A DNA stretch of 64,000 nt from an uncultured Nitrososphaerota archaeon (GCA_963824385.1 CAWGPD010000002.1:192001-256000), one strand, 5' to 3'. Shown: positions 42,221 to 64,000, counted from the first letter of the stretch. A program made the numbers and translations. Notes: a model not told the origin generated them from the sequence alone.

Positions 42221-42260
42221 AAACATGCAAATTACTCAAAGCCCTTAAAGTGTACGCCTA

Positions 42261-42272: not shown

Positions 42273-42332
42273 AGCTACAAGTCAACTATATTTTCCACAA
42301 GTTCTATAAATAACAATTTGACAATACAGCCT

Positions 42333-42999
42333 ATGAATAGAAATTCATCCATTGCACTATTCGGTGCAGTCTTTGTGGTCGCAGTAGGACTCATGGGCGC
42401 TAATGGAGTTTTCTCAATGTCATCGGGCATTATTGGCACATCTGGTACAAATTACCATGAAAATGCAGGAAACTTACTAGGCCATGTTACTCTAGTCGCA
42501 CAAGATCCAAGTGGAAACATTAAGGCATATCGACAAATGGACAACGTCGTAACACAGGTAGGAAGAACATGTACCGCAGCTTCTTTATTTGGAACAGTTC
42601 AATCATCAGGTTCTGATGCAGGCTGTTGGCCAAGAGGTACACAAGCTTCAGGTGAATTCCAGTACATCGGTATAGGATCATTGTCAAGAGCTGAAGTTAC
42701 ATCTGATACTAGTCTTGATTCCTATATACCAGGTTCTCCACCACAAGCACGAACATCATATATCTTGACCAACTCATCAAGCTCTACTAATGCAGGTGGA
42801 ACGTATGGTGCTACAGCAGTACAATCGACAAGCTTCATTTTCGGTGCACTCACAAACTGTTGGCGAAGCAGACTTGCAGGATGCCGCAGCAACTGTACAA
42901 GCATCAGAACATGCGTTTGCCAGAAAAGCAATTACCCCAACAATTGGTGTAAACAGCGGTGATACCTTAACTGTCACTTGGACAATATATACTGGATAA
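42333..42999 (+). CDS. Exported phage tail-fibre-like beta protein, paralog A; +1 frameshift at ~42830
   Basis: N-terminal hydrophobic helix; GHV...GNIKAYRQMDNVVT..G, YIGIGS, SDTSL, TVGEA, FARK and GDTLTVTWTI. The two track ORFs join. Confidence 0.7.
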
Positions 43000-43157
43000 A
43001 TTTCCAGTACTTACAACTTTTTTATTTTAACTATTCTTTAAGTAATTTATACATAGTTATGAATCAATAATTAATTTTATTTTCTAGCAAATGTCTTGTT
43101 GAGTACCATAAAACTAGTCTTACAATATATTTATCAAGGGATTGTCATAACAATGGT

Positions 43158-44000
43158 ATGAAACATAATAATGTATTTTTATGTTCTATGTTGTTGATAA
43201 TCACAATATCAGGTTCAATCTTTTCATTTGCTTTTGGATTATCAGATAATGTCACATCTTTGATAACAAAAGGAGATACTGCCATCTACGCCAAAAACTT
43301 TACTGGCGCAATTTCTTATTTTGATCAAGTATTAAAAACTAATCCAAATAATACTGACGCATTAATCAATAAAGGAGTTGCATTAGGAAATCTCCAAAAC
43401 TTTACCGGCGCAATTTCTTATTTTGATCAAGTATTAAAAACTAATCCAAATAATACAGATGTATTAAACAATAAAGGTGCAGCTTTAATCAAGGAATCAA
43501 AATTTGATGAAGCAAATTCAAACTTTGATAAAGTACTAAAAATTGATCCCACCAATACAATAGCAATTTCAAATAAAAAGGTAATATCGAATAGATACAA
43601 TCCTACCCAACCATATAACAGCTCTCGCTTTACTTTATTTTGTCAAGTAGAGATTCGAGACAAAGATAATCACTTGGTTAGTTATATTGAGCCTCAAATA
43701 ATCCAAGTTCCAGATCCAGATTTTCTTGATATTATGCTAGATACATGGAGTGCAGGAAAATTTAATCAAAGTGGTCAAATACTAACTATAGAAAAATCAA
43801 TTATACATAAAGATGGTAAAGATTTTGAAATGTTCAAGTTTTCAAATAATTCTACATTTGATGGTAATAGTATAATGGTTTCAAAAACTGGATATGCAAT
43901 GGCTGGAGTGTGGGTTATCTATGGATATCATGATGGATATCAACTTGAAACTGGTGATAGAGAGATATTAAAATTCACTATTATTAGACCCGTTAGTTAA
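43158..44000 (+). CDS. Exported TPR-repeat protein
   Basis: Signal peptide and three TPRs. A near-identical 60-bp DNA duplication has a 102-bp period (43295-43354 and 43397-43456). Confidence 0.85.
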   Translation: MKHNNVFLCSMLLIITISGSIFSFAFGLSDNVTSLITKGDTAIYAKNFTGAISYFDQVLKTNPNNTDALINKGVALGNLQNFTGAISYFDQVLKTNPNNTDVLNNKGAALIKESKFDEANSNFDKVLKIDPTNTIAISNKKVISNRYNPTQPYNSSRFTLFCQVEIRDKDNHLVSYIEPQIIQVPDPDFLDIMLDTWSAGKFNQSGQILTIEKSIIHKDGKDFEMFKFSNNSTFDGNSIMVSKTGYAMAGVWVIYGYHDGYQLETGDREILKFTIIRPVS

Positions 44001-45194
44001 CCTGTTTGAAAATAAAATTCCTACACCTATGGCAAAGAAAATTACAACAGGGATCTGTCTGTATGGTTCAAGTGTATAAGTTGTAAGTCCTGAAAGTAGT
44101 GGAGAGGAGAAAAGTGTCCATGCTAGAAAAATCATTGCCGAATATGCATAAAATATTTTTTGCTTTGCACAGATGTATAATGCTATTACCAGAGGAAGTA
44201 AACAAAATAAAACAAGCCAGTCATTTCTTAATTGAAATGAAACTGAGGCAAAGCCATCCCAAAATCTTTGAGCGCTAAATGATATGTCTGGTATACCTGG
44301 TACCAATCCCTTGATCTGTGTTGATACTACAAAAATTAATCCCATTATTACATATGGCGTAACAACTAGAATCTTTTTTCTTTTTGATATATCTGAATTT
44401 AGAGTAAAAAATAAAGTCATGGGAATAAAAATAGCAGTCAATGCCTTTGAAAATACTGATAAGATAAAAGATACATGAGATAGATACCACTTTTTTAAAA
44501 TCAAAAATAAAGATAAAAGATAAAAAAATATCCAAAAGTTTGCATATGATGCAGTACTGTCATATGTCAAAAAATTATTACTTTGAAGTACCATAATTAC
44601 TGCAATCAGAGAACCTATTCTTTTTTTGGTTAATTCTAAAGTTGTAAAATAAACTAGCAGCAACATCAAAAAACTTGAAATTAACGGTATCATTCTGATA
44701 TTTTTGAAAATTATTATGGAAGCGTGAAGTAGAAAATATTTAAAGCCAAAAGTAATGTTATCTATGCTAAAACTCCAGTTAGTTCCCTGATATTTTGCAA
44801 TTTGATAATCATCATAAGTCTCTTCACTGTAAATATGTGACAAGGTAAATGCAAGATAAATTGCATACAAAACTATGATTGTAACAAATGCTACCTTCCA
44901 TGAAACATCAAACTGTTGTATAAAACCAAAGAATTTTGTAATTTTACTTGGAAGTTTTCCTTTTTTATTTAAAATAATAATTCCAATTAGAATTGAATTT
45001 ACAATTAGAAAAGGTATTGCTACTAGTCCTGGCTCAAATGGACTAATGGAATTATCTTGCAAATTACTTACAAGTCGTACTATTAATCTGGGAAAAACAA
45101 TTGATGATAAACTTGTGATAACTACAAAGAGTGTAAAAGCAAGAACGCTGTAAGAAAAAATTCTTGATTTATTATTTGAAGAAACATTTTCCAT
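43968..45194 (-). CDS. Polytopic membrane protein, GT-C glycosyltransferase-like
   Basis: About 11 TM helices; acidic EETYDD loop after a TM; S..SK and EPYR motifs. Confidence 0.6.
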   Translation of the reverse strand: MENVSSNNKSRIFSYSVLAFTLFVVITSLSSIVFPRLIVRLVSNLQDNSISPFEPGLVAIPFLIVNSILIGIIILNKKGKLPSKITKFFGFIQQFDVSWKVAFVTIIVLYAIYLAFTLSHIYSEETYDDYQIAKYQGTNWSFSIDNITFGFKYFLLHASIIIFKNIRMIPLISSFLMLLLVYFTTLELTKKRIGSLIAVIMVLQSNNFLTYDSTASYANFWIFFYLLSLFLILKKWYLSHVSFILSVFSKALTAIFIPMTLFFTLNSDISKRKKILVVTPYVIMGLIFVVSTQIKGLVPGIPDISFSAQRFWDGFASVSFQLRNDWLVLFCLLPLVIALYICAKQKIFYAYSAMIFLAWTLFSSPLLSGLTTYTLEPYRQIPVVIFFAIGVGILFSNRLTNGSNNSEF

Positions 45195-45453
45195 TATTGA
45201 TTAAAATTAAAATGCCTGAGATTTAAAGTATCTTTGGTAAAAGTTGATTCAAATTATGTTTTTAATGTTGATATCAAGTCTTACTTGATGTGTGATATTG
45301 ATCATTATTCAAAATTAACATGATTTTCTTTTCATTATACAAATGTCCGTTACGGATCATCTAATTATTTTTCAATTCCATTTCGGTATGTTGTTTTCTT
45401 GGAGTTGTTGTTTTAGTTTCCCTAGTTTACATTTTTCAAACAAAAGTTATTAA

Positions 45454-46077
45454 ATGACAGAAAAGAATCAAATGTTGATATCTATGAAAAATATTTTAAT
45501 TGTAATGCTTGTAACTGCTTCAATCTCTGCTGGTGGAGTATTTTCATTTTTAACAAGTGAGAGTTTACCATCTGCAATGCATGACGAAAGCACAAAGGTA
45601 CTAGGACATGTAGAGTACAAAGTGTTCGGTCCTGATGGCAATATCAAAGAATATCTTCAAGCTGATAACTTGGTAGTAACCAACGGTGATAACTCGACAG
45701 TAAACAAGATGTTTAGTGTTTCAAGAACAACTACAAGTGTAACGATAAACCCCTTTATTGCAATTGCAGTAGGGACTGGAAGCACTGGTCCTTTTACAAC
45801 TGATACTGCACTTGGTACTCAACAAGGACACAAAACTATTGCAACCACTTCTATTACTACGGCAACTCACGGGCAGGTCACATTGACAGGCGTATTTAAT
45901 CCAGGAAAAATTACCAACTCTACAACTCAGACAATAACCGAGTCGGGTGTCTTTGATAATACTGCTACAACTCTGAATAGTAACTCTACTAACATGTATG
46001 CAAGACAGACCTTTAGTGGAATTACTATAGCATCTTCAGATACGCTTCAGGTTACTTGGAACATAACCATAACTTAG
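45454..46077 (+). CDS. Exported phage tail-fibre-like beta protein, paralog B
   Basis: Signal/TM; GHV...GNIKEYLQADNLVVTNG, IAVGTG, TDTAL, TITESGVFD, MYARQTF and SDTLQVTWNI. Confidence 0.75.
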   Translation: MTEKNQMLISMKNILIVMLVTASISAGGVFSFLTSESLPSAMHDESTKVLGHVEYKVFGPDGNIKEYLQADNLVVTNGDNSTVNKMFSVSRTTTSVTINPFIAIAVGTGSTGPFTTDTALGTQQGHKTIATTSITTATHGQVTLTGVFNPGKITNSTTQTITESGVFDNTATTLNSNSTNMYARQTFSGITIASSDTLQVTWNITIT

Positions 46078-46113
46078 ATCGCAGTTAATTTGTATATTAT
46101 ATTGGTATCAAAT

Positions 46114-46125
46114 GATCCATTTTGG
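46114..46125 (+). promoter_or_regulatory. GATCCATTTTGG element, 44 bp upstream of a TATA-like box
   Basis: Identical to 42261-42272. Confidence 0.55.
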
Positions 46126-46186
46126 TACTTGTAATATTGGATATATTGCAACATCTCTTATATTAGACTAAAACATAATTGACATA

Positions 46187-49100
46187 TTGCACCATATTGG
46201 GAATGTTAGGTTATTCTATCTACTTTTAATTGTAATAGGCTCTTCTGTTTTGGGACTAGGTATTAATTCTGCATCTGCTCAACTTGCCGCTCCTAATTGT
46301 AGCGGTATTGCACCAGGTGAAAATGTAAACTATAACGGTTGTGACTTTTCTATTTATCCTTCTACCTTTAGTTTTCAAAATGCTGATCTGAAAGGAGCAA
46401 CATTTGTAAATGCCCAACTTAGCGGTGTAAATTTTGATGGTGCTCTACTCCAAGGTGCAAATTTTAATGGAGCAGACAATAACGGCAATATTGGAAATGT
46501 AGAATTAGTTAATGCTAATCTTACCAGAGCAACATTTGAAAATATTAATCCAGATGAAAGCACATGGCATTTCCAAAGTGCAGATCTTCATTATGCTGAC
46601 TTTATAGGAGCTGATCTATCAAACTCTGATCTTACCTCAGCTGATATTACAGGATCAAACTTTACCGGTGCAACTCTTCAAGCTACAGATTTTACAAATG
46701 CGTTTATGGAAAACGTAATATTTTCTAGTACAACATACATTCAAAATTCAAGTTTTCTTGGTGTTGATTTTAGTGGTACAAAACTTACTCACTTGAATCT
46801 CTCAAATAATAATTTTGATGGTGCTAGTTTCCTTAATGCTAATTTGACTGGAACTTCAATGGTAAATACTTCTCTTGTTGATGCTACGATTGACATATCA
46901 AACGTATCTACAAATGTCGCTACAACCTTCCAAAATGCAGATCTTAATTATGTTGACTTTACTGGAGCACAAATGTCTGCTGATACAAACCTCTCCGGTG
47001 CAACTCTTGTAGGAACCACCTTTGCTTGTACAGGTAACGCTATTTGTACGGCAAGTAATAATTCTCCACCAGTCATTAACTTTGATAAAATATCATTTAC
47101 TGGTGGTACAAGTCTAGTCCAAGTTAACTCTACAGCATGGAAGGTAGGTGCAGCAACAAGTTCTGGCACTAATGTGCAATTCACTGGAGTTTATGCAACA
47201 ATAGGAACAACTACAATCGAGCAGGGCTCAAATCTAGTTTGTACTCCAAATAATACGTTATTTCCTCTAGGTACTAATCAAGTCACATGTACTGCAACAG
47301 ACCCGAATAATCCAGCAAATACCAGTGTTGCGCATTTTTACATAATTATAGTAAATAACACTCCTCCCTCAATTTCTACACCAACTAGTGTAGTTGCGGA
47401 AGCAACAGGACCAAATGGAGCCATGGTAACTTATCATGCTACTGCAAATGATCCTGTAGATGGAGATATTACATCAAAGATGATATGTACACCTGCTAGC
47501 GGTTCACAATTTGCCCTAGGTTCAACAACAGTAACATGTAATGTGACTGACTCGGGCGGAAATTCTGCAAGTGCTCATTTTACAGTCACAGTAAAAGATA
47601 CTACACCACCTATCATCACTGCTGCTAGTCCACAATATCAAGAAGCAACAAGTTCAGCAGGCGCCAAAATATTTTATCATGCAACTGCATTTGATTTGGT
47701 AAGCGGAAACATTCCACTAACAGGAAGTGGTCCAACTAATTTCTGTACACCACTTAACGGTACTCAAGAAGCATTTGGTTCAACTACAACAGTTACCTGT
47801 TCAGCAACAGATGCTGCAGGAAATACTGCAAGTGGTACTTTTTCAGTTACCGTACGAGACACTACACCGCCTAAAATCATACTGGTTCAACCAACTATCA
47901 CCATGGCAGCAACAGGTACACTAACCCAAGTTAATCTAGTTGGAACTGTAACTGCTGCTGATACTGTAGATCCAAATCCACAATTGACAAATAATGCACC
48001 AGTATCTGGCTTTTCAATAGGAATATCACAAGTAACATGGACAGCAAAAGATGCATCTGGTAATGTTGCACAGGCAGTTCAGACCATAACTATAACAACA
48101 AATCCATCACTAGTTACAATCACGCCTTCTTCTAACGTTGTAACAGGAGCAACAGGTCCTCTAACCCAAATATCGTTGATAACTCCAGCTTTTACTGATC
48201 CATTTGATCCACATCCTACAATAACAAATAATGCACCAGCAGACTGGTTATCTAGTAGGAATAACTACTGTAACTTGGACTCTAGTAGACCATGCCAGTC
48301 CACCTAACACTGCTACTGGTCAGCAGACAGTTACAGTACAAGATACTACATCACCTACAATCACTGCTGCTAGCCCACAATATTTCCAAGCAACAGGACC
48401 ATTGGGAGCCATTGTATCTTACAAAGCAACTGCGTTTGATCTTGTAGACGGAAAAATTACGCCAAGCTGTACACCAATTAATGGAACTCAATTTGCAATT
48501 GGAACAACACCTGTAACATGTACTGCAAGTGATAGTCATCATAATACTTCAACACAAACATTTTCAGTAATAGTTCAAGATACCGTAGGACCTGTTATGA
48601 CTCTGACACCTAATCCTGTGATTGTAGAAGCAGTTAATCAAAATGGAGCACCAGTGACTTTCAATGTTACTGCAACTGATCTTGTAACAGGTCATGCTTC
48701 AGCTTCATGTACTCCACCTTCTGGAACAATCTTTGGATTGGGACAAACATCAGTAATATGTACTGCAAGTGATAATCAAAATCCACATAATACCAGTACA
48801 CTTTCATTTCTAGTTACAGTACGAGACACTATACCGCCTACAATTACTGCACCGCCAAATATTACTACTAAAGCAACAGGTACTCTAACCCAAGTGACCT
48901 TGGGAACTCCAACTGTTTCTGATACAGTTGATCCAAATCCAATAGTTACAAATAATGCACCAGCAGCAGGTTTCCCAGTAGGAACAACAATTATAACATG
49001 GACTGCAACAGATCACTCTGGTAACAAGGCAACAGCCGCTCAGACTATAGTTATTTTACCTCAAAATACCCCTGGTGAAGTATATAGTAAAGGTTCAATA

Positions 49101-49721
49101 GAAAAAGGCATTAACTTTAACATGTTCATCCAATCCTGTGATGGATTAACTTTCATTGGGCATCTTGATTATAATGACAACTCTGCGCACATAGATCTCG
49201 ATTCCGTATCTATTACATCACTAAATGTTGATAGCACAGGTACAAAGGCTAACTTTACTGGAACTGCTACATTAAACGATCATTATACTGGATATACATT
49301 CAAAGCATATGTGATTGATAATGATAATGGAAAACAAAGTAATGGTAAAAATGACTTTTTCCAAATTGCAATATTTGATAGTACTGGCAGACAAATTTAT
49401 GCAAACAGTGGACATCTAATCCATGGTAGTATTGAAGTTAGCAACCAAGTCGGTGTAATCAATAGGCCATGTGACTATGACCAGAGAGATTACGGCAATT
49501 CCAATAATTATACCTCAAATAATGACTACTGGAATCCTAATCACTGGCATAACGGTAAGTGGGATAACCACCAAGGAAATAATGGTCAAGGAAATATTTG
49601 CCAAGGCAATAATGGCTGGGGAAATAACAACCAAGGCAATAATGGCTGGGGAAATAACAACCAAGGCAATAATGGCTGGGGAAATAACAACCAAGGAAAT
49701 AACTTCAATAACGGACACTAG
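46187..49721 (+). CDS. Exported adhesin-like protein: pentapeptide repeats, multiple HYR domains, a C-terminal beta domain and an N/G/Q/W-rich tail; +1 frameshift at ~48243
   Basis: Signal peptide; A(D/N)LxG pentapeptides; repeated EAT...F..G.T.VTC.A.D..N....F.V.V.DTTPP units; (QGNNGWGNNN)x3. Confidence 0.85.
49570..49703 (+). repeat. 30-bp coding tandem repeat (QGNNGWGNNN), 3 exact copies plus degenerate flanks
   Basis: ccaaggcaataatggctggggaaataacaa at 49601, 49631 and 49661. Confidence 0.9.
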
Positions 49722-50187
49722 TACGTTTAAACAATAACTATCACCTCTTTTACGAGATTTAGATATGAAAATGACTTTCTGCATGTATTAAGCAAAATCA
49801 AATTTCAAATGTTGACCAAGACACCATTTTCAGTTAAAGATGAGTGCCTTTATCAGATATGGCTATTTTTTTTTAAGGGAAAATGATTGACAAACCATCT
49901 CTTACTCTATATTCTTAAAATCAGTTGATAAAATCCTCTTCTCATGCTAGAAATTAAAAAATCCACCTAAAAATCATATGAATATATGTAATCCTGATAA
50001 TCTAAAAGTCAATCACATGATTACAAGTATCCTTTGAAATCTATCTCTAGGTTTTGTCCCATTTTGTTAAATTTGTGATTAAACTAAAGTTTTATGACAT
50101 TAGTTATCCAGACAAGCAAATTAAGAATTATCGATTTTAGCCTTTGAGGAAATTAAACATTGTAATAATTTGTTTACTACTTTAATG

Positions 50188-50559
50188 TCATAATGCTTTC
50201 ATTTTCTCCTCAACAATCTGCCTATATTTTGGAAAGTTCGTTATCATATACTCTGATTCCGATGTTTCAATAAATATAGAATCTTCAATTGCAATGAATA
50301 GATGAGCAATATCTTTTGGAATATGTATTATTGCAGGTGCCTTGAATGTTTGAACTGTTTCTTGATCGATAGAAATGTCATTGAATCTGACTTCTACTTG
50401 ACCAGAAATTAATGTATGATCTTGATCATATTTGTGATAATGACCTCCACGAGCAAACCCCTTCCTAGTCTCTATAAGGTTGATTTTCATATTGTTATAT
50501 GAATAGAAGATGATCTTACCCCTTACATCATCAATTTCCTTTTCAAATTTTAAATTCAC
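50188..50559 (-). CDS. Cupin-fold protein (sugar-nucleotide isomerase-like)
   Basis: DDVRG, RGGHYH and IP..IAH.F. Confidence 0.75.
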   Translation of the reverse strand: MNLKFEKEIDDVRGKIIFYSYNNMKINLIETRKGFARGGHYHKYDQDHTLISGQVEVRFNDISIDQETVQTFKAPAIIHIPKDIAHLFIAIEDSIFIETSESEYMITNFPKYRQIVEEKMKAL

Positions 50560-50836
50560 AAAATTAATAATTAACTAATTACTATTTCAAGACTTCCAAA
50601 TTTTTTATTATAGTCATCTGACATGTACAGTAATTAGAATCAAAATTCTTTTTATGTTAATATCCAAGATAAACATTACATTTACACATAAAAAAAAGAA
50701 ATATATCCAAAACTAAAGTTGTTTATTATTGTACCATGAATTAGTCAAGTATCTGTGCAATTAAAATAATGTTCTAAATTAAATTGACTTTGATGTTTTA
50801 GATAATCTTTAAGATCAAGATAAAAATATTACATGT

Positions 50837-51295
50837 ATGAAAAATTTTCAATATGCACCAAAACAAATCTATGATCAATTTGGAAAATATTTTCCATTTT
50901 CAACTGTAGATGTAATAATATTCCAACAAGACTCTATTCTTTTGATAAAACGAAAAATAATTCCTTACAAGGGAAAGTGGCATTTTCCTGGAGGACTGAT
51001 ACGAAAAAATGAAAAAATAAAAGATGCTGCAAAACGTGTTGTTAAAGTAGAATTGAATTTAGATATAAAACTTGAAAATTTTTTAGGAGTTTATGAAAAT
51101 CCTATTAGAACTCGTCATGATATAACACATTGTTTTATTGCGACTATGAAAAATAAAATTAACAATGATTATGAAACCAAATCAATAAAATTCTTTCAAA
51201 AAATTCCAAACAACACAATTCCATATCATAAATTAATAATTAAAGATGCATTTGAATATATGAAAATAGCAAAGAAAATTTCTTATCGTCGGTAA
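50837..51295 (+). CDS. NUDIX hydrolase (GDP-mannose mannosyl hydrolase-like)
   Basis: TVDVII...LL.KR...P.KG.W.FPGG.IRKNE....A..R....EL and GVYE...H. Confidence 0.75.
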   Translation: MKNFQYAPKQIYDQFGKYFPFSTVDVIIFQQDSILLIKRKIIPYKGKWHFPGGLIRKNEKIKDAAKRVVKVELNLDIKLENFLGVYENPIRTRHDITHCFIATMKNKINNDYETKSIKFFQKIPNNTIPYHKLIIKDAFEYMKIAKKISYRR

Positions 51296-51748
51296 GTATT
51301 ATATTTTAATTATAATTTAAATTAATTAAAAAATATTATTCATTTGTTTTTTATAATTACATAATTATTTACTTGCTAAAAAAAATATTTTATAATTTGT
51401 TACAATTCAATTTTATTTTTTAAAATGATCAAAATTTTAAAAATTAATTTAGAAAAAATATTTTTCTAAAAATTATTCATTTGACATAATTTAGAAATTT
51501 TTTAACTAAAATTAAAAAAATAGATTTTATTTGATAGTCCAAAAAGGACACCTAAAATGGTCTTGTTGCCAGAACGGTTAATCTATCCATTCGATAATTC
51601 CTCTCCTCTTTAATCCAATGTTGGATAATTTTACAATGTTGGAAATTATGCAATATTTCCCAGATTCTCTAGAATTGATCCTAGACTATTCTGTAATTCA
51701 TTTTAAAATTTCTGATCTAAAAAAAATTAATTTTTGGAGTTTTGAAAA

Positions 51749-54700
51749 ATGAAAATTGGTATTTTAATTTCTTGTTTGTTATTGATATCTGTTTTTAGCT
51801 ATGCATATGCTGATTCAATTATAATAGATGCTGATGTCAAACAAGCTGATACAAGACAAAACTTAACTCCATCATTACAAAATTCTTTGCCAACCAATAC
51901 AAAAAAATATTTTTCAATAAATCTAAATGAAAATATTGGAATTTCTGCAAATGATCAAAAACCATCTTCTCCAAATTCTAAATCTATGATGGTTGGATCC
52001 ATAAAAAGAATTTCTCTTTCTGAATATATTTCAATAACTACAGCTGGACTAGATCATAATTCGATTGCAATTTTTAAAAATAATAATATGGATAAAATTA
52101 CAACACTTGAACAACTTTCTTATCCTGAAAGAATAAGACTTAATGGAAAAAATGTTTTAGTTGATAATTATAATGTAAATCTTTTACTTGATCAATTTCC
52201 AATTGTCAAGGTTACAAATAATCTTCTAACTAATCTTTACTATGAAAAAATTACTTATTGCTGTATCGAGGAAAAAATTCAAATTGTAAATGATATTGCA
52301 TTTGTTGATAATTTCTTACTTGAAAATAACATTCCACAATTTTACCAATTAGATAATATTGCAAGTACTGACTTTGCTGACGTTGTACATGATTTGTCTG
52401 CCAGTACTAATCCTACAATTCTTCTCTTGTTGGTACTCCTTTCGAGTTATTTGTTATACTCTTACGAGGACGTAAAAATAAAGTATAACAAAAATAGAAT
52501 TTTTTCATTTTGTTTTATTTTGATTCTTGCTTTATCTTCAATCTTTACTCCGTTTTCGATATCTCAAAGTTATTGGGGTTATGCATATGGTGAGGTTGAA
52601 AGCAATTCGTCTAGTGCAATATACTCTACTACCCCACAAAATTCATTATCTCTTACGAACCCGGCTAGTAATTCAACCATATATCATACTACACAAGTAT
52701 CGCAGAATGATACATCTCAGACAGGTAATCTCACATACTATCATTGGAACTTGTTCCATTCTAAGAACCAGACAAGCTTACCATACCATATATCACTAAA
52801 TGCTACACCCAATGCAGGCAATTCTACATCCCCTCATTGGAACTCGTCGCATTCTAGGAGCCAGACAAGCTTACCATATCATACATCGCAGAATGTTCCA
52901 TCTCAAACAAGCAGCCCCACACCCTTACAACTCCCTAATGGAGTAAATACCCAGCCAACACCTGCACTCAATGGTGTTGGTATGAGTGATGTACTCACAA
53001 TAAAAGTCACTAGGGCAAATCCAACTGGTACCTCTATTTCCAGTCTACCTATCAATACAAATAACCCACAAAATGCTACTTCCTCTTTCTCAAACCTACC
53101 CATGTCTGATTCAGTCTTGGCAATGCTTCGTACACTATCTGGCTCTGTAACTAGCGTCTATGTCTCAAACCAAGTATCATTGGCTGATTCAGTCTCATTT
53201 GTAACTACCAACTCAAATGGCTCCAAAATAGTGCCAGTTTTCTTAAACCAGGTAACCATATCTGACTCTGTTATAGTTACCAAGCCAGGAGTAACCGTAC
53301 CAAATTCTACTCAATCTTGGCAATTCAACTCCATTAACAGTACTAACCACGTAGGCAACGTAGCCATCATAAACGGCACCAATGGAAATTTGCTACAACT
53401 CCAAGGAAATGGCTATCTTACTGATAAATCAAATCAGACAAAAACACTCGAAAACTTTACAATATCAGCCTGGGTCAAGCCAGATTATAGCCAAGGATCT
53501 CCTGTTTTTACTGTTGTAAGCAAGTACAACGAGTTTGCCCTTACTATTAACAACAACATAAACCCAAGAGGAGTTGCCTCATTTGGTGTCTATGACGGTA
53601 TTAAGTGGACAACGGTAAACTCTACGGTCCAATTAAACCAGACCTGGAATCACCTTGTTAGTACCTATAATGGCTCTGCAATTAGCATCTATGTCAACGG
53701 TACACTACAATCAACAACACCAATCAAAAGTACTCTAGTCTTGGCTGCTGACGGTGATCTTGTTCCCAAGACTCCAGACCAAATATCCTCAAACAATGAT
53801 GTAGTCATTGGGGCATTACTAGACACGGCACGAGGCTTTGGCCAGCCTATGAACAGCTTCTCTGGTCTTATCCAAAAGGTATCATTCTATGAGCCATACC
53901 TAAATCAGCAGCAAGTAGCTCAATTATATATCCAGGAACTGCCTACTTTTGTACCTCCGTCTTCTGCTTCCTATATCACTCCAGTATCTGATGGAATTGA
54001 TATTTTAGATGCAATTGCTACTTGGCTTGACTCTTCAAATCTTAACACTACATCTCTTGCTGCTGTACCTTCAGTTAACAACACACAACAGACTTATCTT
54101 ATTACACAAAATCCAGAATTTATCTACCAGTATCTATCTGATGCCCAACTTTTGACAATTACACCTGCAATAAAACCATCTCACAAGCAGCCACAAACAG
54201 GAGGCTGGGCTGATTCAGAGAAGTCAATTACTATTGATATAACAGGTCCGGATGGAAAGAAGAAGACATTCTCACCAACTATTTCAGAGATAAGACAAGG
54301 AAAATACGACATTAAAGTTCCATCATTAAGAGACGTAAGGGCTGGTATTTACAGTGTAAAAATAACCATGGTAAGAAATGGCCAGAAATTTGTAACTAAT
54401 GACCAATACCAGTGGGGTCTAGTCTCAGTTAACACAGACATGAGTACATACAAACCAGGAGACGTTGCAAAACTAATCCTTGTTGTACTAAACAGCACTG
54501 GAAATTCTGTTTGCAATTCTAATATCTTGATGACAATCACCGATCCTCAATCCAAAAAGACTACACTTGCAACTGGACTTGGAATTACACCAAGCAATGA
54601 GTGTGGTCTGTATGACGCAAATTACACAACCACCACACAAGGTAATTATTCCGTAAACGTCTCTGCACAGACTCAGACAGGATATGCGTTCTTTTCAACC

Positions 54701-57700
54701 TCATTTTTAGCACAAAATTATACACAATATCAAATAACAAGACAGGCAGATTCAAAGATAGACCCAGTTGACTATCCAAATAACTTCAAGGTAACACTTG
54801 ATGTGCAATCCTTTGTTGGCAATGCACCCGTTGTTATCAGAGAGTATGTACCTGCAAACTTTACCGTAACTACAGATGGACAGGTAAACCAAACTGGAGA
54901 CACCAAAGTTATCACCTGGCTGAAAAACTTGGGTCCTGGAAACAGCACCAATGTATCGTACAATTATTCCGTACCCAAGATTTATCCAAAACTGTATGCG
55001 CTAGGCAAGGCACAGATAGGCCAGAGCAACATGACATATGTCGAGGCAAGAAACTGGTTTGTCGCAGTTGATCCTCTAACCACTCAAGTAGATACTACGA
55101 CTGCAGCCAACACCAATGCACTAGCCGAAGAAAAATCAACCAAGCAGAATGTCTGTATATCGGCCACCGTGTGTTATTCTGCCTACATTACCTCATCTAG
55201 TAATGCTGTAATGGCAAAATCAACCGATGGTGGTAATACTTGGGGTGCACCAGTAGCACTCAGCTCAGGTCTTACGGTTGTTGGACTGGGAATATGGTAT
55301 GACAGATGGACACCAGGAGACAAGACAGGCAATAACATCCATGTCTTATTCTTGGACAGTGGCAACGACAGGACAAACTATGTACGATACAGCACAAATA
55401 ATGATTCTGCTTCAACCTCAGTTCAGACAGTTACCTTCGCAATGGGTTCACAAACTGATAACAATGATCTTGGAATAACTAAAGGTGCTGACGGAACACT
55501 CTATGCCGTAACAGATGATACTACTGGATTGACTGGTGGTCACTCGTTTATGCACTATTGTAAATCAGACTGTACTGTTGCTTCAAACTGGAAGGAGACT
55601 CCACAATTATTTGCTTCCGGAAATAAGGTTGGTACCTTGGGAGAAAATGATAACCTCCTACTTCCTCTAAACGATACAGATTCTTCTGTAATGATAGTTG
55701 CCCAAAATGTTACAACATCAACCTTCAAGGGAGCTATATACTATAACATCTTTGATCCAGTCACAAACACAACAAAATACTCTGACTTTCAAGTAATTAC
55801 TGGAGGAACTACACACGGATGGAAGACCAACGCCAATTACAGGCATACATTATCTGGAGCAGTAGACCCACTGTACCACACAATCTACATTAGTTATGTG
55901 AACAATACCGATGTAGCAGGTGTCAGTACAGCAATTGGAGTATGGAAGTATGTTCCATCATCATCTCCATCTTGGACTCAGCTTACAAAAATACCTGCTA
56001 CCAACTCTTCATCGTTTATACTTGATTCATCAATTGGAATTGCCAACTCGACAGGGTTGTATGTGGCATATTCTGAAGCAAAGACTGTAGGCACTGATAA
56101 TATCTATTATGCAGTATCTGTAGATGGAGGCAACACCTGGACCCAAGACCAGCAGATAAATGATATTGCAGCAGGTGACTTTAGGAGTGTCTCTATTGAA
56201 GCATCATCTGATACATCTTTACATGTTTTGTGGCAATCTAGGACTACTGGTCCTACAACTATTCACCTGTATACGGATACTGTAACACAGGTTGCATTCC
56301 AGAGGGAATCTATGGCAATTGTTGACCAGCCAGTAGTTATTGTCAGAAGAAGATCATCAAGCCAATCTGATTCAATGCCGTTATCAGATGCGCTAACAAT
56401 AGGTGGAAAACGTTCAGCCATGGTATCTAATGCAATTCCATTATCAGATGTACTGAGTACAGCTGGTGTACATCACCTTACACTAAACGAGGCTTCATCG
56501 ATATCTGATACAAGTTCCCGTCAAAGATTCAAGATAGCCACTGAAATAGATTCAATCCCATTGTCTGATCAACTAACCATACAAAAGAAATTATCAAGAT
56601 CACTCTCTGACGCAATTCCACTATCTGATTCATTAACCATAGCCAGAAAAACTTCTAAATCATTATCAGATTCAATCCCATTATCTGACCAGCTAACATA
56701 CAAGAGAGTCAGCTTCACTCTCCCTATCTGACGCTATCCCATTATCAGATCAACTAACTATACAGAAGAAATTATCACGAACATACTCTGACGCAATCCC
56801 ACTAGCAGACCAATTAACATACAAGAAATCAACCTCTACTTCACTAGCAGATTCAATCCCATTATCTGACCAGCTAACATACAAGAGAGTAGCTTCACTC
56901 TCCCTATCTGACGCTATCCCATTATCAGATCAACTAACTATACAGAAGAAATTATCACGAACATACTCTGACGCAATCCCACTAGCAGACCAATTAACAT
57001 ACAAGAAATCAACCTCTACTTCACTAGCAGATTCAATCCCATTATCTGACCAGCTAACATACAAGAGAGTCAGCTTCACTCTCCCTATCTGACGCTATCC
57101 CATTATCAGATCAACTAACTATACAGAAGAAATTATCACGAACATACTCTGACGCAATCCCACTAGCAGACCAATTAACATACAAGAAATCAACCTCTAC
57201 TTCACTAGCAGATTCAATCCCATTATCTGACCAGCTAACATACAAGAGAATCAGCTTCACTCTCCCTATCTGACGCTATCCCATTATCAGATCAACTAAC
57301 TATACAAAAGAAATTATCACGAACATACTCTGACGCAATCCCACTAGCAGACCAATTAACATACAAGAAATCAACCTCTACTTCACTAGCAGATTCAATC
57401 CCATTATCTGACCAGCTAACATACAAGAGAGTCACTTCACTCTCCCTATCTGACGCTATCCCATTATCAGATCAACTAACTATACAAAAGAAATTATCAC
57501 GAACATACTCTGACGCAATCCCACTAGCAGACCAATTAACATACAAGAAATCAACCTCTACTTCACTAGCAGATTCAATCCCATTATCTGACCAGCTAAC
57601 ATACAAGAGAGTAGCTTCACTCTCCCTATCTGACGCTATCCCATTATCAGATCAACTAACTATACAAAAGAAATTATCACGAACATACTCTGACGCAATC

Positions 57701-60700
57701 CCACTAGCAGACCAATTAACATACAAGAAATCAACCTCTACTTCACTAGCAGATTCAATCCCATTATCTGACCAGCTAACATACAAGAGAGTCAGCTTCA
57801 CTCTCCCTATCTGACGCTATCCCATTATCAGATCAACTAACTATACAAAAGAAATTATCACGAACATACTCTGACGCAATCCCACTAGCAGACCAATTAA
57901 CATACAAGAAATCAACCTCTACTTCACTAGCAGATTCAATCCCATTATCTGACCAGCTAACATACAAGAGAGTAGCTTCACTCTCCCTATCTGACGCTAT
58001 CCCATTATCAGATCAACTAACTATACAAAAGAAATTATCACGAACATACTCTGACGCAATCCCACTAGCAGACCAATTAACATACAAGAAATCAACCTCT
58101 ACTTCACTAGCAGATTCAATCCCATTATCTGACCAGCTAACATACAAGAGAGTAGCTTCACTCTCCCTATCTGACGCTATCCCATTATCAGATCAACTAA
58201 CTATACAAAAGAAATTATCACGAACATACTCTGACGCAATCCCACTAGCAGACCAATTAACATACAAGAAATCAACCTCTACTTCACTAGCAGATTCAAT
58301 CCCATTATCTGACCAGCTAACATACAAGAGAACAACCACTGCCAATCTATCAGATGCAATCCCATTATCTGATCAACTAACTATACAGAAGAAATTATCA
58401 AGATCATACTCTGACGCAATCCCACTAGCAGACCAATTAACATACAAGAGAACAACCTCAACATCATTATCAGATTCAATCCCATTATCTGACCAGCTAA
58501 CATACAAGAGAACAACCACTGCCAATCTATCAGATGCAATCCCATTATCTGATCAACTAACTATACAAAAGAAATTATCAAGATCATACTCTGACGCAAT
58601 CCCACTAGCAGACCAATTAACATACAAGAAATCAACCTCAACATCATTATCAGATACAATCCCATTATCTGACCAGCTAACATACAAGAGAACAACCACT
58701 GCCAATCTATCAGATACAATCCCATTATCTGATCAACTAACTATACAAAAGAAATTATCACGAACATACTCTGACGCAATCCCACTAGCAGACCAATTAA
58801 CATACAAGAAATCAACCTCTACTTCACTAGCAGATTCAATCCCATTATCTGACCAGCTAACATACAAGAGAGTAGCTCACTCTCCCTATCTGACGCTATC
58901 CCATTATCAGATCAACTAACTATACAAAAGAAATTATCACGAACATACTCTGACGCAATCCCACTAGCAGACCAATTAACATACAAGAAATCAACCTCTA
59001 CTTCACTAGCAGATTCAATCCCATTATCTGACCAACTAACATACAAGAGAACAACCACTGCCAATCTATCAGATGCAATCCCATTATCTGATCAACTAAC
59101 TATACAAAAGAAATTATCAAAATCATACTCTGACGCAATCCCACTAGCAGACCAATTAACATACAAGAGAACAACCTCAACATCATTATCAGATTCAATC
59201 CCATTATCTGACCAACTAACATACAAGAGAACAACCACTGCCAATCTATCAGATGCAATCCCATTATCTGATCAACTAACTATACAAAAGAAATTATCAA
59301 GATCATACTCTGACGCAATCCCACTAGCAGACCAATTAACATACAAGAAATCAACCTCAACATCATTATCAGATACAATCCCATTATCTGACCAGCTAAC
59401 ATACAAGAGAACAACCACTGCCAATCTATCAGATACAATCCCATTATCTGATCAACTAACTATAATCAAGTCACTATCAAGAACACTATCAGATTCACTT
59501 CCATTATCTGACCAACTAACAACAATGAAATCAACCTCAACATCATTATCAGATACAATCCCATTATCTGACTCACTAACTGCAAAGAGAATTGCCTATG
59601 CAAATCTCTCTGATTCTATTCCACTATCAGATTCATTAACAGCTATCAAATTAAATAAATCTCCATCTCTCGCCGACGCAATCCCATTATCTGACTCACT
59701 AACTGCAAAGAGGATTGCCTATGCCAATCTATCAGATACAATCCCATTATCAGACCAACTAACATACAAGAAATCAGCTACTCTATCCCTATCTGATACA
59801 ATCCCACTATCCGACCAATTAACATTCATCAAGTCAGTCTCAAAATCCCTCTCAGATACAATTCCATTATCTGACCAACTAACAACAATGAAATCAACCT
59901 CAACATCATTATCAGATACAATCCCATTATCTGACCAGCTAACATACAAGAGAACAACCTCAACATCATTATCAGATACAATCCCACTATCCGACCAATT
60001 AACATTCATCAAGTCAGTCTCAAAATCCCTCTCAGATACAATCCCATTATCTGACCAACTAACAACAATGAAATCAACCTCAAAATCCCTCTCAGATACA
60101 ATCCAATTATCAGACCAACTAACATACAAGAAATCAACATCCACATCACTTGCTGATACTATTCCATTATCTGATCAACTAACATTCATCAAGTCAGTCT
60201 CAAAATCCCTCTCAGATACAATCCCATTATCTGACCAACTAACAACAATGAAATCAACCTCAACATCATTATCAGATACAATCCAATTATCAGACCAACT
60301 AACATACAAGAAATCAGCTACTCTATCCCTATCTGATACAATCCCACTATCCGACCAATTAACATTCATCAAGTCAGTCTCAAAATCCCTCTCAGATACA
60401 ATCCCATTATCTGACCAACTAACAACAATGAAATCAACTTCAACATCATTATCAGATACAATCCAATTATCAGACCAACTAACATACAAGAAATCAGCTA
60501 TCTCTATCCCTATCTGATACAATCCCACTATCCGACCAATTAACATTCATCAAGTCAGTCTCAAAATCCCTCTCAGATACAATTCCATTATCTGACCAAC
60601 TAACAACAATGAAATCAACCTCAAAATCCCTCTCAGATACAATCCCATTATCTGACCAACTAACATACAAGAAATCAACCTCAACATCATTATCAGATAC

Positions 60701-63700
60701 AATCCCACTATCCGACCAATTAACATTCATCAAGTCAGTCTCAAAATCCCTCTCAGATACAATTCCATTATCTGACCAACTAACAACAATGAAATCAACC
60801 TCAAAATCCCTCTCAGATACAATCCCATTATCTGACCAACTAACATACAAGAAATCAACCTCAACATCATTATCAGATACAATCCCACTATCCGACCAAT
60901 TAACATTCATCAAGTCAGTCTCAAAATCCCTCTCAGATACAATCCCATTATCTGACCAACTAACAACAATGAAATCAACCTCAACATCATTATCAGATAC
61001 AATCCAATTATCAGACCAACTAACATACAAGAAATCAACATCCACATCACTTGCTGATACTATTCCATTATCTGATCAACTAACATTCATCAAGTCAGTC
61101 TCAAAATCCCTCTCAGATACAATCCCATTATCTGACCAACTAACAACAATGAAATCAACTTCAACATCATTATCAGATACAATCCAATTATCAGACCAAC
61201 TAACATACAAGAAATCAACATCCACATCACTTGCTGATACTATTCCATTATCTGATCAACTAACATTCATCAAGTCAGTCTCAAAATCCCTCTCAGATAC
61301 AATCCCATTATCTGACCAACTAACAACAATGAAATCAACCTCAACATCATTATCAGATACAATCCCATTATCAGACCAACTAACATACAAGAAATCAGCT
61401 ACTCTATCCCTATCAGATACAATCCCACTATCCGACCAATTAACATTCATCAAGTCAGTCTCAAAATCCCTCTCAGATACAATTCCATTATCTGACCAAC
61501 TAACAACAATGAAATCAACCTCAACATCATTATCAGATACAATCCCATTATCTGACCAACTAACATACAAGAAATCAACCTCAACATCATTATCAGATAC
61601 AATCCCACTATCCGACCAATTAACATTCATCAAGTCAGTCTCAAAATCCCTCTCAGATACAATTCCATTATCTGACCAACTAACAACAATGAAATCAACC
61701 TCAAAATCCCTCTCAGATACAATCCCATTATCTGACCAACTAACATACAAGAAATCAACCTCAACATCATTATCAGATACAATCCCACTATCCGACCAAT
61801 TAACATTCATCAAGTCAGTCTCAAAATCCCTCTCAGATACAATCCCATTATCTGACCAACTAACAACAATGAAATCAACCTCAACATCATTATCAGATAC
61901 AATCCAATTATCTGACCAACTAACAACAATGAAATCAACCTCAACATCATTATCAGATACAATCCCACTATCCGACCAACTAACAATCATCAAATTCACA
62001 TCACCGTATCTATCAGATTCCATTCCATTATCCGACCAACTAACAATCATCAAATTCACTACTGCCAATCTCTCCGACTCTATCTCATTATCCGACCAAC
62101 TCACTGCGAAGAAGTCAACCTCAACATCACTTGCAGACTCAATCCCACTAACAGACCAACTAACATACAAGAAATCAACCTCAACATCATTATCAGATAC
62201 AATCCCACTATCCGACCAACTAACAATCATCAAATTCACATCACCGTATCTATCAGATTCCATTCCATTATCTGACCAGCTAACAATCATTAAATTCACT
62301 ACTGCCAATCTCTCCGACTCTATCCCATTATCAGACCAACTAACAACAATGAAATCAACCTCAACATCATTATCAGATACAATCCCACTATCCGACCAAC
62401 TAACAATCATCAAATTCACATCACCGTATCTATCAGATTCCATTCCACTATCCGACCAACTAACAATCATCAAATTCACTACTGCCAATCTCTCCGACTC
62501 TATCTCATTATCAGACCAACTAACAACAATGAAATCAACCTCAACATCACTTGCAGACTCAATCCCACTAGCTGATCGACTAAGTGTACAGAGAACAGTC
62601 TACGCTAATCTCTCCGACGCAATCCCATTATCCGACCAACTAACAACTATCAAATCAGGTTCTACCTCTCTATCTGACTCCATCTCATTATCTGATCAAC
62701 TAACAATCATCAAACTCACTTCTGCTTCACTCTCCGACGTTATCCCATTATCTGACCAGCTAACAACAATGAAATCAACCTCAACATCATTATCTGATAC
62801 AATCCCATTATCAGATCAACTAACATACAAGAAATCAGCTACTCTATCCCTATCTGACTCCATCCCACTATCCGACCAACTAACAATCATAAAATTCACT
62901 TCTACCTCTCTATCTGATTCACTTCCATTATCAGACCAACTCACTGCAAAGAAGTCAACTTCTACCTCTCTCTCCGATTCAATCCCACTAGCAGATCAGC
63001 TAACTATACAAAGAATAGCCTACGCTAATCTCTCCGATTCACTCCAACTATCCGACAAACTAACCACAATAAAATCAGCCTCTGCTTCTCTCTCCGATAC
63101 AATCCCATTATCCGACCAATTAACCACTATCAAATCTCTTTCCACTTCACTCTCCGACTCTATTCCGTTATCTGATCAATTAACTGCAAAGAGAATAGCC
63201 TACGTCTCTCTATCAGATACAATCCCACTAGCAGACCAACTAACTGTACAAAAGTCATCTGTTGTCAATCTCTCCGACTCTATCACACTATCCGACTCTC
63301 TAACACTTCCCAACAAATTAATCTCAAAATATTTCTCTGACACAATTCCATTATCTGACCAACTAACAACAATGAAATCAGCTACTGCCAATCTCTCCGA
63401 CACAATCTCATTATCTGATTCACTAACTGCAAAGAGAATAGCATACGTCTCTCTCTCCGATTCACTCCCATTATCTGATCAACTAACAATCATCAAATCA
63501 CTCTCCAAGTCCCTCTCCGATTCAATCCAACTATCCGACCAACTAACAGCCTTCAGAACAACAGCTGCCGTCTCTCTATCTGATTCTATCCCACTAGCAG
63601 ACCAACTATATGTAAAGAGAATAGCCTACGCTAATCTCTCCGATTCACTCCCACTATCAGATCAACTAACAACACAGAGAACAGCCTCTGCTTCCCTATC

Positions 63701-64000
63701 TGACGCAATCCCATTATCCGACCAACTAACAACAATTAGAACAACAGCTGCCGTCTCCCTCTCCGACATAATTCCACTATCTGATAAATTAACAACAATG
63801 AAGTCAACTTCTACCTCTCTCCCCGACACAATTCCATTATCCGACCAGATAACCATACAAAGAACAGCCTCTGCTTCCCTATCTGATTCAATTCCATTAT
63901 CCGACCAGCTAACAACACAACTAACAACATCCACATCATTATCTGATTCAATTCCATTATCCGACCAGCTAACAACACAACTAACAACATCCACATCATT
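51749..64000 (+). CDS. Giant exported surface protein (>4000 aa, incomplete): signal peptide, TM pair, LamG, MG2/Ig-like and Asp-box domains, then ~125 20-aa repeats; six apparent indels in the repeats
   Basis: FTISAWVKP...WNHLV.TYNG..ISIYVNG (LamG); STYKPGD; STDGGNTW and SVDGGNTW (Asp boxes). The repeat frame continues after 1-nt shifts and is open from ~60500 to the window end. Confidence 0.85.
56365..64000 (+). repeat. 60-bp (20-aa) coding tandem array with 180-bp higher-order units
   Basis: Consensus LSD[STA]IPLSDQLTxxKxxxxx; successive 60-nt lines align in register; two 63-nt units at ~59650 and ~63310. Confidence 0.97.

Follow-up and report, generated by a model that had tools for sequence, protein, structure and literature searches.

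Introduction

Why should the chromosome of an archaeon hold together small exported proteins built like the fibre bases of tailed viruses and a giant surface protein whose repeats have viral counterparts as well, and what could such proteins do for the cell? The locus that raises this question lies in a stretch of 64,000 nucleotides from an uncultured Nitrososphaerota archaeon (GCA_963824385.1, CAWGPD010000002.1:192001-256000), hereafter the window; all coordinates are counted from its first letter. It comprises two paralogous genes for small fibre-like proteins (family c1), a divergent neighbouring gene (c2) and the gene of a giant repeat protein. The host genome measures 1.68 Mb in five contigs and is estimated to be 86% complete; the window is chromosomal DNA, and the runs that hold it are soil metagenomes. 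Ammonia-oxidizing archaea (AOA) have a key role in the nitrogen cycle, and little is known of their surface attachment or of their interactions with viruses.

A preliminary description, made from the DNA alone, had proposed that a viral fibre module was domesticated here as a surface filament, with one small subunit docked on each repeat of the giant protein. The first half of this idea is plausible, with viral kinship now documented for both parts, and the docking of one subunit per repeat has found no support. The explanation to which we give slightly better than an even chance is an accessory cell-surface module of the Nitrosopumilaceae, in which an anchored protein, c2, is combined with an exported, virus-derived protein, c1, and with a giant repeat adhesin that has a viral-type stalk.

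The Small Fibre-Like Proteins

The two c1 genes lie on the plus strand, paralog 1 (c1a) at 42333..42999 and paralog 2 (c1b; P0002, 207 amino acids), an intact open reading frame (ORF), at 45454..46077. Both encode fibre-like, putatively exported proteins of about 210 amino acids, which share 30% identity (E 7.7e-6) and an N-terminal hydrophobic helix, as the preliminary description had recognized. In the window, paralog 1 is split over two frames near 42850, and the family profile finds its two pieces separately (E 2.3e-24 and 8.9e-9). Positions 41000-46200 were compared with contigs of four public runs, namely three DNA runs from two studies and one RNA library, and the contigs of all three DNA runs have one base fewer at 42846-42848 and at 42151. 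Since the extra base is absent from these runs, the gene of paralog 1 is whole in nature and its frameshift is an assembly error.

The RNA library, a soil metatranscriptome, yielded a 420-nt contig that equals paralog 1 at 42351-42750, with no differences, and ends in a sequencing adapter; nothing else of 41000-46200 is covered by this run. This is a hint that paralog 1 is transcribed, from contigs that give no expression level and in which DNA carry-over is possible.

Across 40 family members, residues G51, H52, G62, Q69, D71, N72, G78, D196, L198 and W202 are invariant (numbering of P0002), and the ordered motifs that had been listed beforehand proved to be real invariants of the family. P0002 consists of a signal-type helix (about residues 11-31), a flexible linker and a beta domain (49-207). 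Sequons for N-glycosylation are conserved in the cellular proteins (N155 in 39 of 40 rows, N80 in 32 of 40), with a median of four per protein in cells vs one in viruses. Together with the N-terminus, they fit an exported glycoprotein; the N-terminus itself reads like a conventional signal that is cleaved, its hydrophobic core being followed by small residues. A profile search of 1.84 billion representative proteins gave 3,815 matches at E<=0.001, of which 1,105 also pass E<=1e-10. Nearly all of the best 150 measure about 185-260 amino acids, and in most of them the alignment begins at one of the first 20 positions of the profile and thus takes in the N-terminal helix. Among the named homologues of P0002, the closest is from Nitrosotalea devaniterrae (name as given by the source; 51% identity).

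A class III (pilin-type) signal was considered for c1 and rejected: no [KR]-G/A cleavage motif precedes the hydrophobic stretch, and small residues follow it, as in ordinary signal peptides. A Pfam match of P0002 to 'Mycobact_memb' was also set aside, with a score of 19.2 bits at a cut-off of 21 and a span limited to the N-terminal helix.

Kinship of c1 with Viral Fibre Proteins

c1 has relatives among viral proteins. P0002 matches phrog_5417, a viral family of unknown function, at E 2.9e-14 (residues 61-206 on positions 22-156 of a 156-position profile), and the first 173 amino acids of paralog 1 match the same family at E 1.1e-4. In addition, P0002 matches phrog_4176, annotated as 'tail fiber protein' (E 3.5e-4). 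Pfam and NCBIfam give no match for c1. The DUF3751-like affiliation that had been put up for checking does not hold as formal membership: PF12571 (Phage_tail_fib, formerly DUF3751) matches none of the 40 cellular members at E<=1, and three distant homologues of about 148-156 amino acids reach E 0.0021-0.045, below the cut-off. The gathering threshold of PF23140 (Gp80; 27 bits) is likewise missed, with one of the 40 members at E 0.039 and the best distant homologue at 26.2 bits. Nor did the c1 profile find anything meaningful among the sequences of solved structures (best E 0.31).

At the level of fold, the kinship is much clearer. The AlphaFold2 (AF2) model of P0002, built from the 40-sequence alignment, has a predicted local distance difference test score (pLDDT) of 82; in it, the N-terminal helix and a linker without order are followed by a beta domain that is modelled with confidence and is complete in the monomer (residues 49-207, pLDDT about 90-96). 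Foldseek returned a single match at E<=0.001 from the PDB, a 953-residue tail chain of Haloferax tailed virus 1 (HFTV1; 9h4p, E 3e-6), to which VIA-align superposes 133 residues (Z 11.4, root-mean-square deviation [rmsd] 3.7). Values of Z 8.2-8.3 were obtained for GP4 fibre I gp80, A511 gp105 and the phi812 arm segment, and unrelated folds stay at Z<=4.4; for GP4 gp80 (8jou_a, PF23140), the alignment covers 117 of 136 residues (Z 8.3, rmsd 3.4). Among the predicted viral structures of BFVD, 59 match at E<=0.001, including proteins of haloarchaeal tailed viruses and lipothrixviruses; annotated tail fibre proteins match at E 4.5e-10 to 1.9e-9 and models named 'Tail collar fiber protein' at E 2.2e-4 to 3.3e-4. 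The resemblance of c1 to tail and collar fibres, stated in the preliminary description, is thus borne out in substance. In HFTV1, the tail carries trimeric fibres anchored on a baseplate hub, according to the structural report (10.1101/2024.12.09.627619).

At least 262 viral stretches in IMG/VR encode c1 relatives with 27-38% identity, and 80 of them were kept. The 80 viral homologues all lack a hydrophobic stretch at the N-terminus and have a median length of 149 amino acids. The Nitrososphaera provirus Pro-Nvie1 encodes a c1 relative at 6821-7384 of its locus (L134), annotated 'putative tail fiber protein'; its immediate predecessor is annotated 'putative viral baseplate protein'. The c1 domain therefore does occur in viruses of this phylum. 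In a tree of the family, the 22 cellular sequences group in a single clade (support 0.96), separate from the 80 viral ones. As the midpoint root falls between the two clades, the tree gives no direction of transfer.

An opposite history, in which the small protein and the repeat protein entered viruses from the cell surfaces of archaea or bacteria, where they could, for example, serve the viruses to adhere to hosts, is equally compatible with this tree, which has no outgroup. However, members of the fold occur in archaeal viruses as well as in phages of many bacterial phyla, and the viral loci with c1 relatives span 31 to 69% G+C, whereas the cellular form occurs in 32 of the 301 genomes sampled across the phylum, 26 of which belong to the window's own family. 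With this distribution, we consider a transfer from cells to viruses unlikely. We infer that the c1 beta domain descends, as a cellular branch, from a small structural protein of tailed viruses.

The c2 Protein and Its Predicted Complex with c1

Among possible partners of c1, its neighbour has the best support. The c2 gene (P0250, 259 amino acids) lies at 41190..41969 on the minus strand, divergent from paralog 1; its translation begins with a signal peptide, continues as a beta-rich ectodomain and ends in a sorting signal. Loci of 20 kb were cut around 20 c1 homologues, and all their ORFs were clustered together with those of the window (21 loci). In 19 of the 20 fetched loci, as in the window, c2 is the divergent neighbour of c1. 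Similarly, among 121 genomes of Nitrosopumilaceae, c1 occurs in 46 and c2 in 44, and 42 have both. Four genomes have c1 only (in two of these, a contig ends at the gene), and two, 72% and 89% complete, have c2 only. Two of the 46 genomes (G354 and G366) are unpublished; without them, the counts among 119 genomes are 44 for c1, 42 for c2 and 40 for both. By contrast with this tight pairing in cells, c2 is absent from all 80 viral loci.

A complex of c2 residues 23-228 with P0002 residues 44-207 was predicted from alignments made for this analysis, next to three controls. The interface score ipSAE was 0.63 (0.57-0.68 in three runs), and the best of the three controls reached 0.00. The mark used for this score was attained by 116 of 157 solved complexes vs 2 of 215 mismatched pairs, counts that hold only roughly with such alignments. 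The c1-c2 runs agree in at least 95% of contacts, and the pLDDT of the partner is at least 86. On the c1 side, the modelled interface is formed by a hairpin, residues 48-57 and 64-71, which contains the motif GHV...GNIK.Y.Q.DN; on the c2 side, it comprises an N-terminal strand (27-33) and residues 50-54, 161-162 and 224-226. The interface residues of both proteins are invariant or nearly so in their families.

A check independent of the model points in the same direction. All 22 cellular c1 sequences have H52, Y67, Q69 and D71, positions that vary in the 80 viral ones; G51, G62, K65, N72 and G78 are common to both. As the first four are fixed in the cellular lineage only and c2 is absent from viral loci, the residues that became fixed in cells face, in the model, a partner that only cells have. 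The prediction supports binding of c1 to c2.

The C-terminus of c2 suggests how such a complex would be held at the surface. It reads 'SPDKSLPEF', followed by a hydrophobic stretch and a basic tail, and all homologues end in the strictly conserved series W-G-x-I-x-S-P-D-K-S-L-P-E-F, a hydrophobic helix and a basic tail, with the PE[FLM] core present in 20 of 20. This is what we take to be a PEF-type sorting signal. The genome encodes a thaumarchaeosortase (TIGR04297; G000:C1:143909-144499) at E 1.6e-142 and 474.6 bits, for a cut-off of 250, and about 40 ORFs genome-wide end in PEF, a helix and a basic tail, including tandem families at C2:80286-85182 and C4:578606-585083. Given this conserved tail and the sortase in the genome, c2 is likely a sortase-anchored surface protein. 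P0250 has no match at E<=0.01 in NCBIfam or Pfam, in which short signal models often miss their targets. As a lead, the Atlas neighbour cluster of c2 carries PF26596 (PEF-CTERM_ARCH; score 0.92, 62% of members).

The Giant Repeat Protein

The third component begins at 51749 on the plus strand. In the window, its gene is read in seven frames separated by six single-base shifts, all at the same point of a 180-nt super-repeat. It was treated as one ORF, because these shifts share the signature of the confirmed assembly errors described below and housekeeping genes of the window are split as well. The gene continues past the window to at least the window-equivalent position 69968 and probably runs on, after further shifts, into a C-terminal domain ending at 71698, which in one relative is part of a single ORF of 2,400 amino acids. 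In total, it has about 6,600 codons.

The head (51749..56547) comprises a signal peptide, an N-terminal domain, hydrophobic segments at residues ~222-237 and ~250-270, a stretch rich in sequons (40 N-x-S/T in the head), a LamG domain (residues 553-724; Pfam Laminin_G_3, E 1.6e-15), an MG2-like domain (894-977) and Asp-box motifs. The preliminary description had assigned LamG and Asp-box domains to it; the former is confirmed, and the latter amounts to two SxDxGxTW motifs, at residues 1158 and 1457, with no Pfam BNR match at E<=0.01.

From 56548 to 64000, where the window ends, the gene consists of a 20-residue repeat array, interrupted by the six frameshifts. Tandem Repeats Finder (TRF) found a 60-nt period with 109.5-121.6 copies across 56548-63977, and a motif count over the whole gene gave 192 repeats with the consensus S-L-S-D-x-I-P-L-S-D-Q-L-T-x-x-x-x-x-S-x; the giant 20-residue repeat protein of the preliminary description is therefore real. 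Giants in other genomes have variants of this repeat, for example L-S-D-S-[IV]-x-[IV]-[ST]-D or an 18-residue L-S-E-x-L-G-F-x-D unit. An AF2 model of 12 repeats, from an 18-row alignment, had a pLDDT of 45, which makes it unusable for a fold search, so that it says nothing on whether the repeats fold alone. With an export signal, lectin-type head domains and a long tandem-repeat stalk, the protein has the features of a giant adhesin.

The giants of three other loci (L033, L034 and L044) share the layout seen at window positions 52412-52560, which consists of a hydrophobic segment, a short charged loop and a second signal-like segment ending in Y-x-x-A-x-A/G, some 220 residues after the signal peptide (giant residues ~222-270). 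This double layout could be a membrane hairpin or a relic of two fused exported proteins.

Homologues of the giant head in other genomes share 30-49% identity over stretches of about 200-780 residues, and in 13 of the 21 loci a giant ORF with such a head is located at most 10 kb from c1. A match to the head was found in 41 of the 121 genomes, that is in 36 of 46 c1-positive vs 5 of 75 c1-negative ones, and the matches in these five are LamG-only ORFs of about 300-480 amino acids. The co-occurrence of the two gene types, which had been proposed as a check, is thus found across the Nitrosopumilaceae; as the genomes are kin, these counts overstate independence.

Association is not contact, and c1-c2 might be a surface complex complete in itself and not linked mechanically to the giant, surface genes simply gathering at a variable and rearrangement-prone spot. 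In favor of this view, 8 of the 21 loci have no giant ORF within 10 kb; in one genome (G060), the giant-head matches (C1 near 440,000 and 1,320,000) are far from c1-c2 (C1 near 989,000); the gene order around the pair differs between genera; and the giant has hydrophobic segments of its own near the N-terminus. However, the phyletic association of 36/46 vs 5/75 speaks against it, and for unrelated neighbours it would be an odd coincidence that exactly these two genes are shared with viral loci, as described in the next section. We consider a pair without link to the giant a possibility of some weight, less probable than a common module.

Viral Counterparts of the Repeats

The repeats, like c1, have viral counterparts. 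Two repeat segments of the window match phrog_12240, one at E 3.9e-31 and the other at 2.4e-34. A profile for which only the window repeats were used finds, in 8 of the 80 viral loci, a matching ORF 24-1,934 bp downstream of the c1-like gene and on the same strand (E 4e-61 to 4e-6); seven of these ORFs have 565-2,049 amino acids and one has 107, and at least 3 kb downstream of the c1-like gene is available in 57 of the 80 loci. In the own genome, which served as a control, the profile matches the giant gene only (six forward-frame pieces and one antisense ORF inside it). None of 300 shuffled copies of the viral ORFs scores, so the match depends on the order of residues and not on composition alone.

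When ORFs of at least 100 amino acids from 13 viral loci were compared by BLASTP, with the low-complexity filter on, with the ORFs of the own genome, only two kinds of match appeared: in 11 loci the c1-like ORF matched P0002, and in 6 the repeat ORF matched the giant gene (E 5e-11 to 3e-37). In a PHROGs scan of six viral loci, the repeat ORF matches phrog_12240 in five, and in four of these five the c1-like gene follows the gene of the major head protein within two small ORFs. In two loci (L072 and L109), a head-tail adaptor gene comes after the repeat ORF. The two gene types, which the preliminary description expected side by side in phage genomes, are thus neighbours in some viruses. Single-query searches were less productive: tblastn with a repeat segment, with the low-complexity filter on, gave no match among isolate phages, and a scan of viral contigs with a repeat segment gave 35 pattern matches, of which none was confirmed.

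Elsewhere, c1-like genes have other companions. In the isolate Achromobacter phage vB_AxyS_19-32_Axy16, the c1-like ORF belongs to the tail-tip block and immediately precedes a 'putative tail fiber protein', and in the records of Axy16 and Pro-Nvie1 the neighbouring ORFs are without such repeats. Because these two have a c1-like gene and no repeat ORF beside it, the small protein is not bound up with the repeat itself. The recurring pattern is that the gene of a small c1-like protein comes shortly before that of a large fibre-type protein; the repeat protein is one such partner, in a minority of viruses.

These observations bear on the mechanism first proposed, in which the giant would be a scaffold, one beta-sandwich subunit would be docked on each 20-residue repeat by strand complementation, and the number of repeats would set the length of the filament. 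The adjacency of the two gene types in 8 of 80 viral loci, as the sole genes that those viruses share with the genome, and their co-occurrence in the archaeal family speak for it. So does the low confidence of the 12-repeat monomer model, expected if folding needs a partner or oligomerization, although many trivial causes would give the same result. In addition, c1 in the model binds an edge strand of c2 (27-33) that is hydrophobic, alternates with S/T and ends in D, loosely like the repeat motif when read by eye. However, the residues that are invariant in cellular c1 only map to the interface with c2, most genomes have a single c1 gene for roughly 200 repeats, and the small protein occurs in Axy16 and Pro-Nvie1 without repeat neighbours. 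Docking of one subunit per repeat consequently appears improbable to us.

Genomic Context and Distribution

The genes are chromosomal, and there is no provirus. In the 20 loci, the neighbours of c1 include two tetrapyrrole methylases, a racemase-like gene and CdvB1/B2, with a uracil-DNA glycosylase in some genomes. No capsid, terminase, portal or integrase gene is present among the 59 ORFs of the window scanned with Pfam, in agreement with the preliminary description, which had seen no viral hallmark gene here. An intact provirus in the flanking DNA would have spoken against domestication; the flanks hold housekeeping genes in conserved synteny.

Among the sampled Nitrosopumilaceae, c1 occurs in 13 of 27 genera, usually as one copy, and its presence often varies within a genus. 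In five of five complete c1-negative genomes, the flanks are kept and the c2-c1 pair is absent. The gene order around the pair is rearranged between genera.

That the small genes might still be virion fibre genes, in a provirus or a decaying viral remnant, is suggested by their sequence and fold kinship with virion proteins and by the annotation of the Pro-Nvie1 relative as a tail fibre protein. Against this stand the missing hallmark genes, the conserved housekeeping neighbours, the confinement of export signals and conserved sequons to the cellular clade, and the monophyly of that clade. This idea has hardly any probability left.

A Proposed Accessory Surface Module

How might the components work together? 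According to the explanation that we favor, the two small genes would give rise to exported glycoproteins in which the viral-type beta domain is preceded by two cellular additions, a linker and a signal-type N-terminus. Once outside, the domain would bind c2 through the hairpin that carries the hallmark motif, and c2 would itself be tied to the membrane by the thaumarchaeosortase of the genome, through its PEF-type C-terminal signal. The c1-c2 pair and the giant LamG/Asp-box/repeat protein would form an adhesion-type module that is gained and lost as a unit in the Nitrosopumilaceae. Because the small domain and the repeats both have counterparts that adjoin among the structural genes of some tailed viruses, the module is most simply read as captured viral fibre parts.

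Several points weigh against this explanation. The c1-c2 contact expresses the confidence of a model made from alignments built for this analysis, and the backbone motif of the hairpin (G51, G62, K65, N72 and G78) is also kept in viruses that lack c2, so the hairpin owes some of its conservation to structure or to another partner. c1 could be a membrane-anchored type II protein instead of a secreted one. The fold of c2 has no assignment beyond a CBM9-like lead (Atlas 0.88; 1 of 20 members at Pfam E 0.064), and the Pfam models of fibre families stay under threshold for c1 (PF12571 and PF23140, see above). The two clades of the tree are clean, and with the root between them it does not give the direction of transfer. 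A repeat protein accompanies the small gene in only 8 of the 80 viral loci, co-occurrence was counted over genomes that are kin and so not over independent events, and 10 c1-positive genomes have no giant-head match, at least two of them with a giant ORF cut at a contig end.

c1 may also touch the giant, and adjacency in viruses argues for such a contact. However, the cell-specific interface residues, the giant's own hydrophobic segments and the phages with repeat-less fibres argue that the repeat need not be a ligand of c1. One elaboration supposes that an ancestor of some Nitrosopumilaceae took the two-gene viral set whole and rebuilt it as a surface fibre system. In that case, c2 would hold c1 at the membrane, and c1 would keep its viral job of gripping the repeat fibre, by edge-strand pairing with a short 'hydrophobic-S/T-hydrophobic-S/T-x-D' strand that occurs once in c2 and about 200 times in the giant. 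c1 would then tether, cap or decorate the giant adhesin, whose repeat number would set its length. We think this elaboration unlikely.

Accessory Genes and Assembly Errors

Between the two paralogs lie two accessory genes, each found in 4 of the 21 loci. The gene at 43158..44000 (c40, P0252; plus strand) encodes a TPR-repeat protein (Pfam TPR_1, E 1.7e-18) with an N-terminal hydrophobic segment, and the gene at 43968..45194 (c39, P0251, 408 amino acids; minus strand) encodes a polytopic membrane protein with no Pfam or NCBIfam match. As a lead only, c39 is a candidate GT-C-type glycosyltransferase, since its Atlas structural neighbours carry PMT_2/GT39 (TM 0.60-0.62); c39 and c40 may glycosylate the module.

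Directly after paralog 2, positions 46187-49721 (plus strand) encode another exported protein, which combines pentapeptide repeats (E 1.1e-30) with a number of HYR domains (E 8.7e-27) and ends in a tail rich in N, G, W and Q; it has no counterpart in the 20 related loci and is spread over two overlapping ORFs. The region 50001-52000, directly 5' of the giant gene, is the most A+T-rich stretch of the window (G+C 0.244), and from 56000 onward the repeat array causes an extreme negative GC skew (to -0.67).

Single-base insertions in the window occur at sites that contain AGCT, where 'T-AGC-T' is read with an extra letter. Those at 42151 and 42846-42848 are confirmed as errors, and the same signature is found at the six frameshifts of the giant gene (56710, 57071, 57252, 57793, ~58875 and ~60500) and in a split aconitase X gene (32332-32405). 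That one short palindrome is misread systematically may be due to modified bases at AGCT in this organism, which would point to a long-read basecalling artefact. A short-chain dehydrogenase is also in two halves (5844-6588), as is the aconitase X large subunit (31737-32895), and the racemase-like gene (39368-39664) is cut to 98 amino acids, compared with about 255 in its relatives. Genes split by frameshifts probably explain the completeness estimate of 86%.

Significance and Comparison with Known Systems

A search of one literature collection found no description of a virus-like fibre-base protein or of the three-gene set in AOA, and no paper on the thaumarchaeosortase. The passages available from a study of flexible genomic islands in marine AOA (10.1101/2024.04.23.590705) do not mention the module. 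In AOA biofilms of two species, a report from 2025 describes the strong induction of large 'adhesion proteins' (1,000-3,000 amino acids) and of neighbouring small proteins of unknown function, and notes their irregular distribution among AOA (PMC12448741).

If the proposed module is real, it would represent a new kind of viral domestication in archaea, in which the cell takes only the fibre parts of a virus, without tail or capsid genes, and combines them with a sortase-anchored protein of its own. phrog_5417 and phrog_12240, both of unknown function, would become directly testable as a pair of fibre base and fibre. In addition, the three-protein set varies between closely related AOA and could bear on their ability to form biofilms or on their susceptibility to viruses.

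Viral structural proteins reused by cells are known from tailocins, contractile injection systems and gene transfer agents. In contrast to these, the present locus has no tail tube, sheath, baseplate or capsid gene, and holds only a fibre-base domain and a repeat protein. Surface filaments of small beta subunits joined by donor-strand complementation are also known, in archaeal threads and bundling pili.

With viral fibre-base proteins (GP4 gp80, 8jou; A511 gp105, 6hhk; phi812, 9fko; HFTV1, 9h4p), the c1 domain shares the beta fold (Z 8.2-11.4), a similar size of about 150 amino acids and the backbone motif G..G.[IV]K......N...G. Unlike them, cellular c1 has a signal-type helix and linker, conserved N-glycosylation sequons, housekeeping genes as neighbours, and the clade-specific invariants H52, Y67, Q69 and D71. 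Similarly, the phrog_12240 proteins of uncultured tailed viruses resemble the giant in their repeats of about 20 residues on the pattern [LIV]-[ST]-[DE]-x-[ILV]-x-[LIVF]-x-D, but they have 565-2049 amino acids and other N-terminal domains and are encoded between the genes of the major head protein and the head-tail adaptor, whereas the giant has about 6,600 amino acids, a signal peptide and a LamG/MG2-like/Asp-box head without PHROGs match.

c2 resembles the proteins sorted by archaeosortases through PEF-CTERM signals, in that it has the PEF motif, the hydrophobic helix and the basic tail in 20 of 20 homologues, with a dedicated thaumarchaeosortase in the genome. It differs in that its ectodomain belongs to no Pfam or NCBIfam family and in its tight pairing with a protein that is probably virus-derived. 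Finally, giant prokaryotic repeat adhesins and the AOA 'adhesion proteins' of the biofilm report (PMC12448741) share with the giant a signal peptide, a lectin-like head, a long repeat stalk and an irregular distribution among AOA; the giant differs from them in its 20-residue unit, in place of an Ig-like domain of about 100 residues, in its viral relatives and in its travelling with c1-c2.

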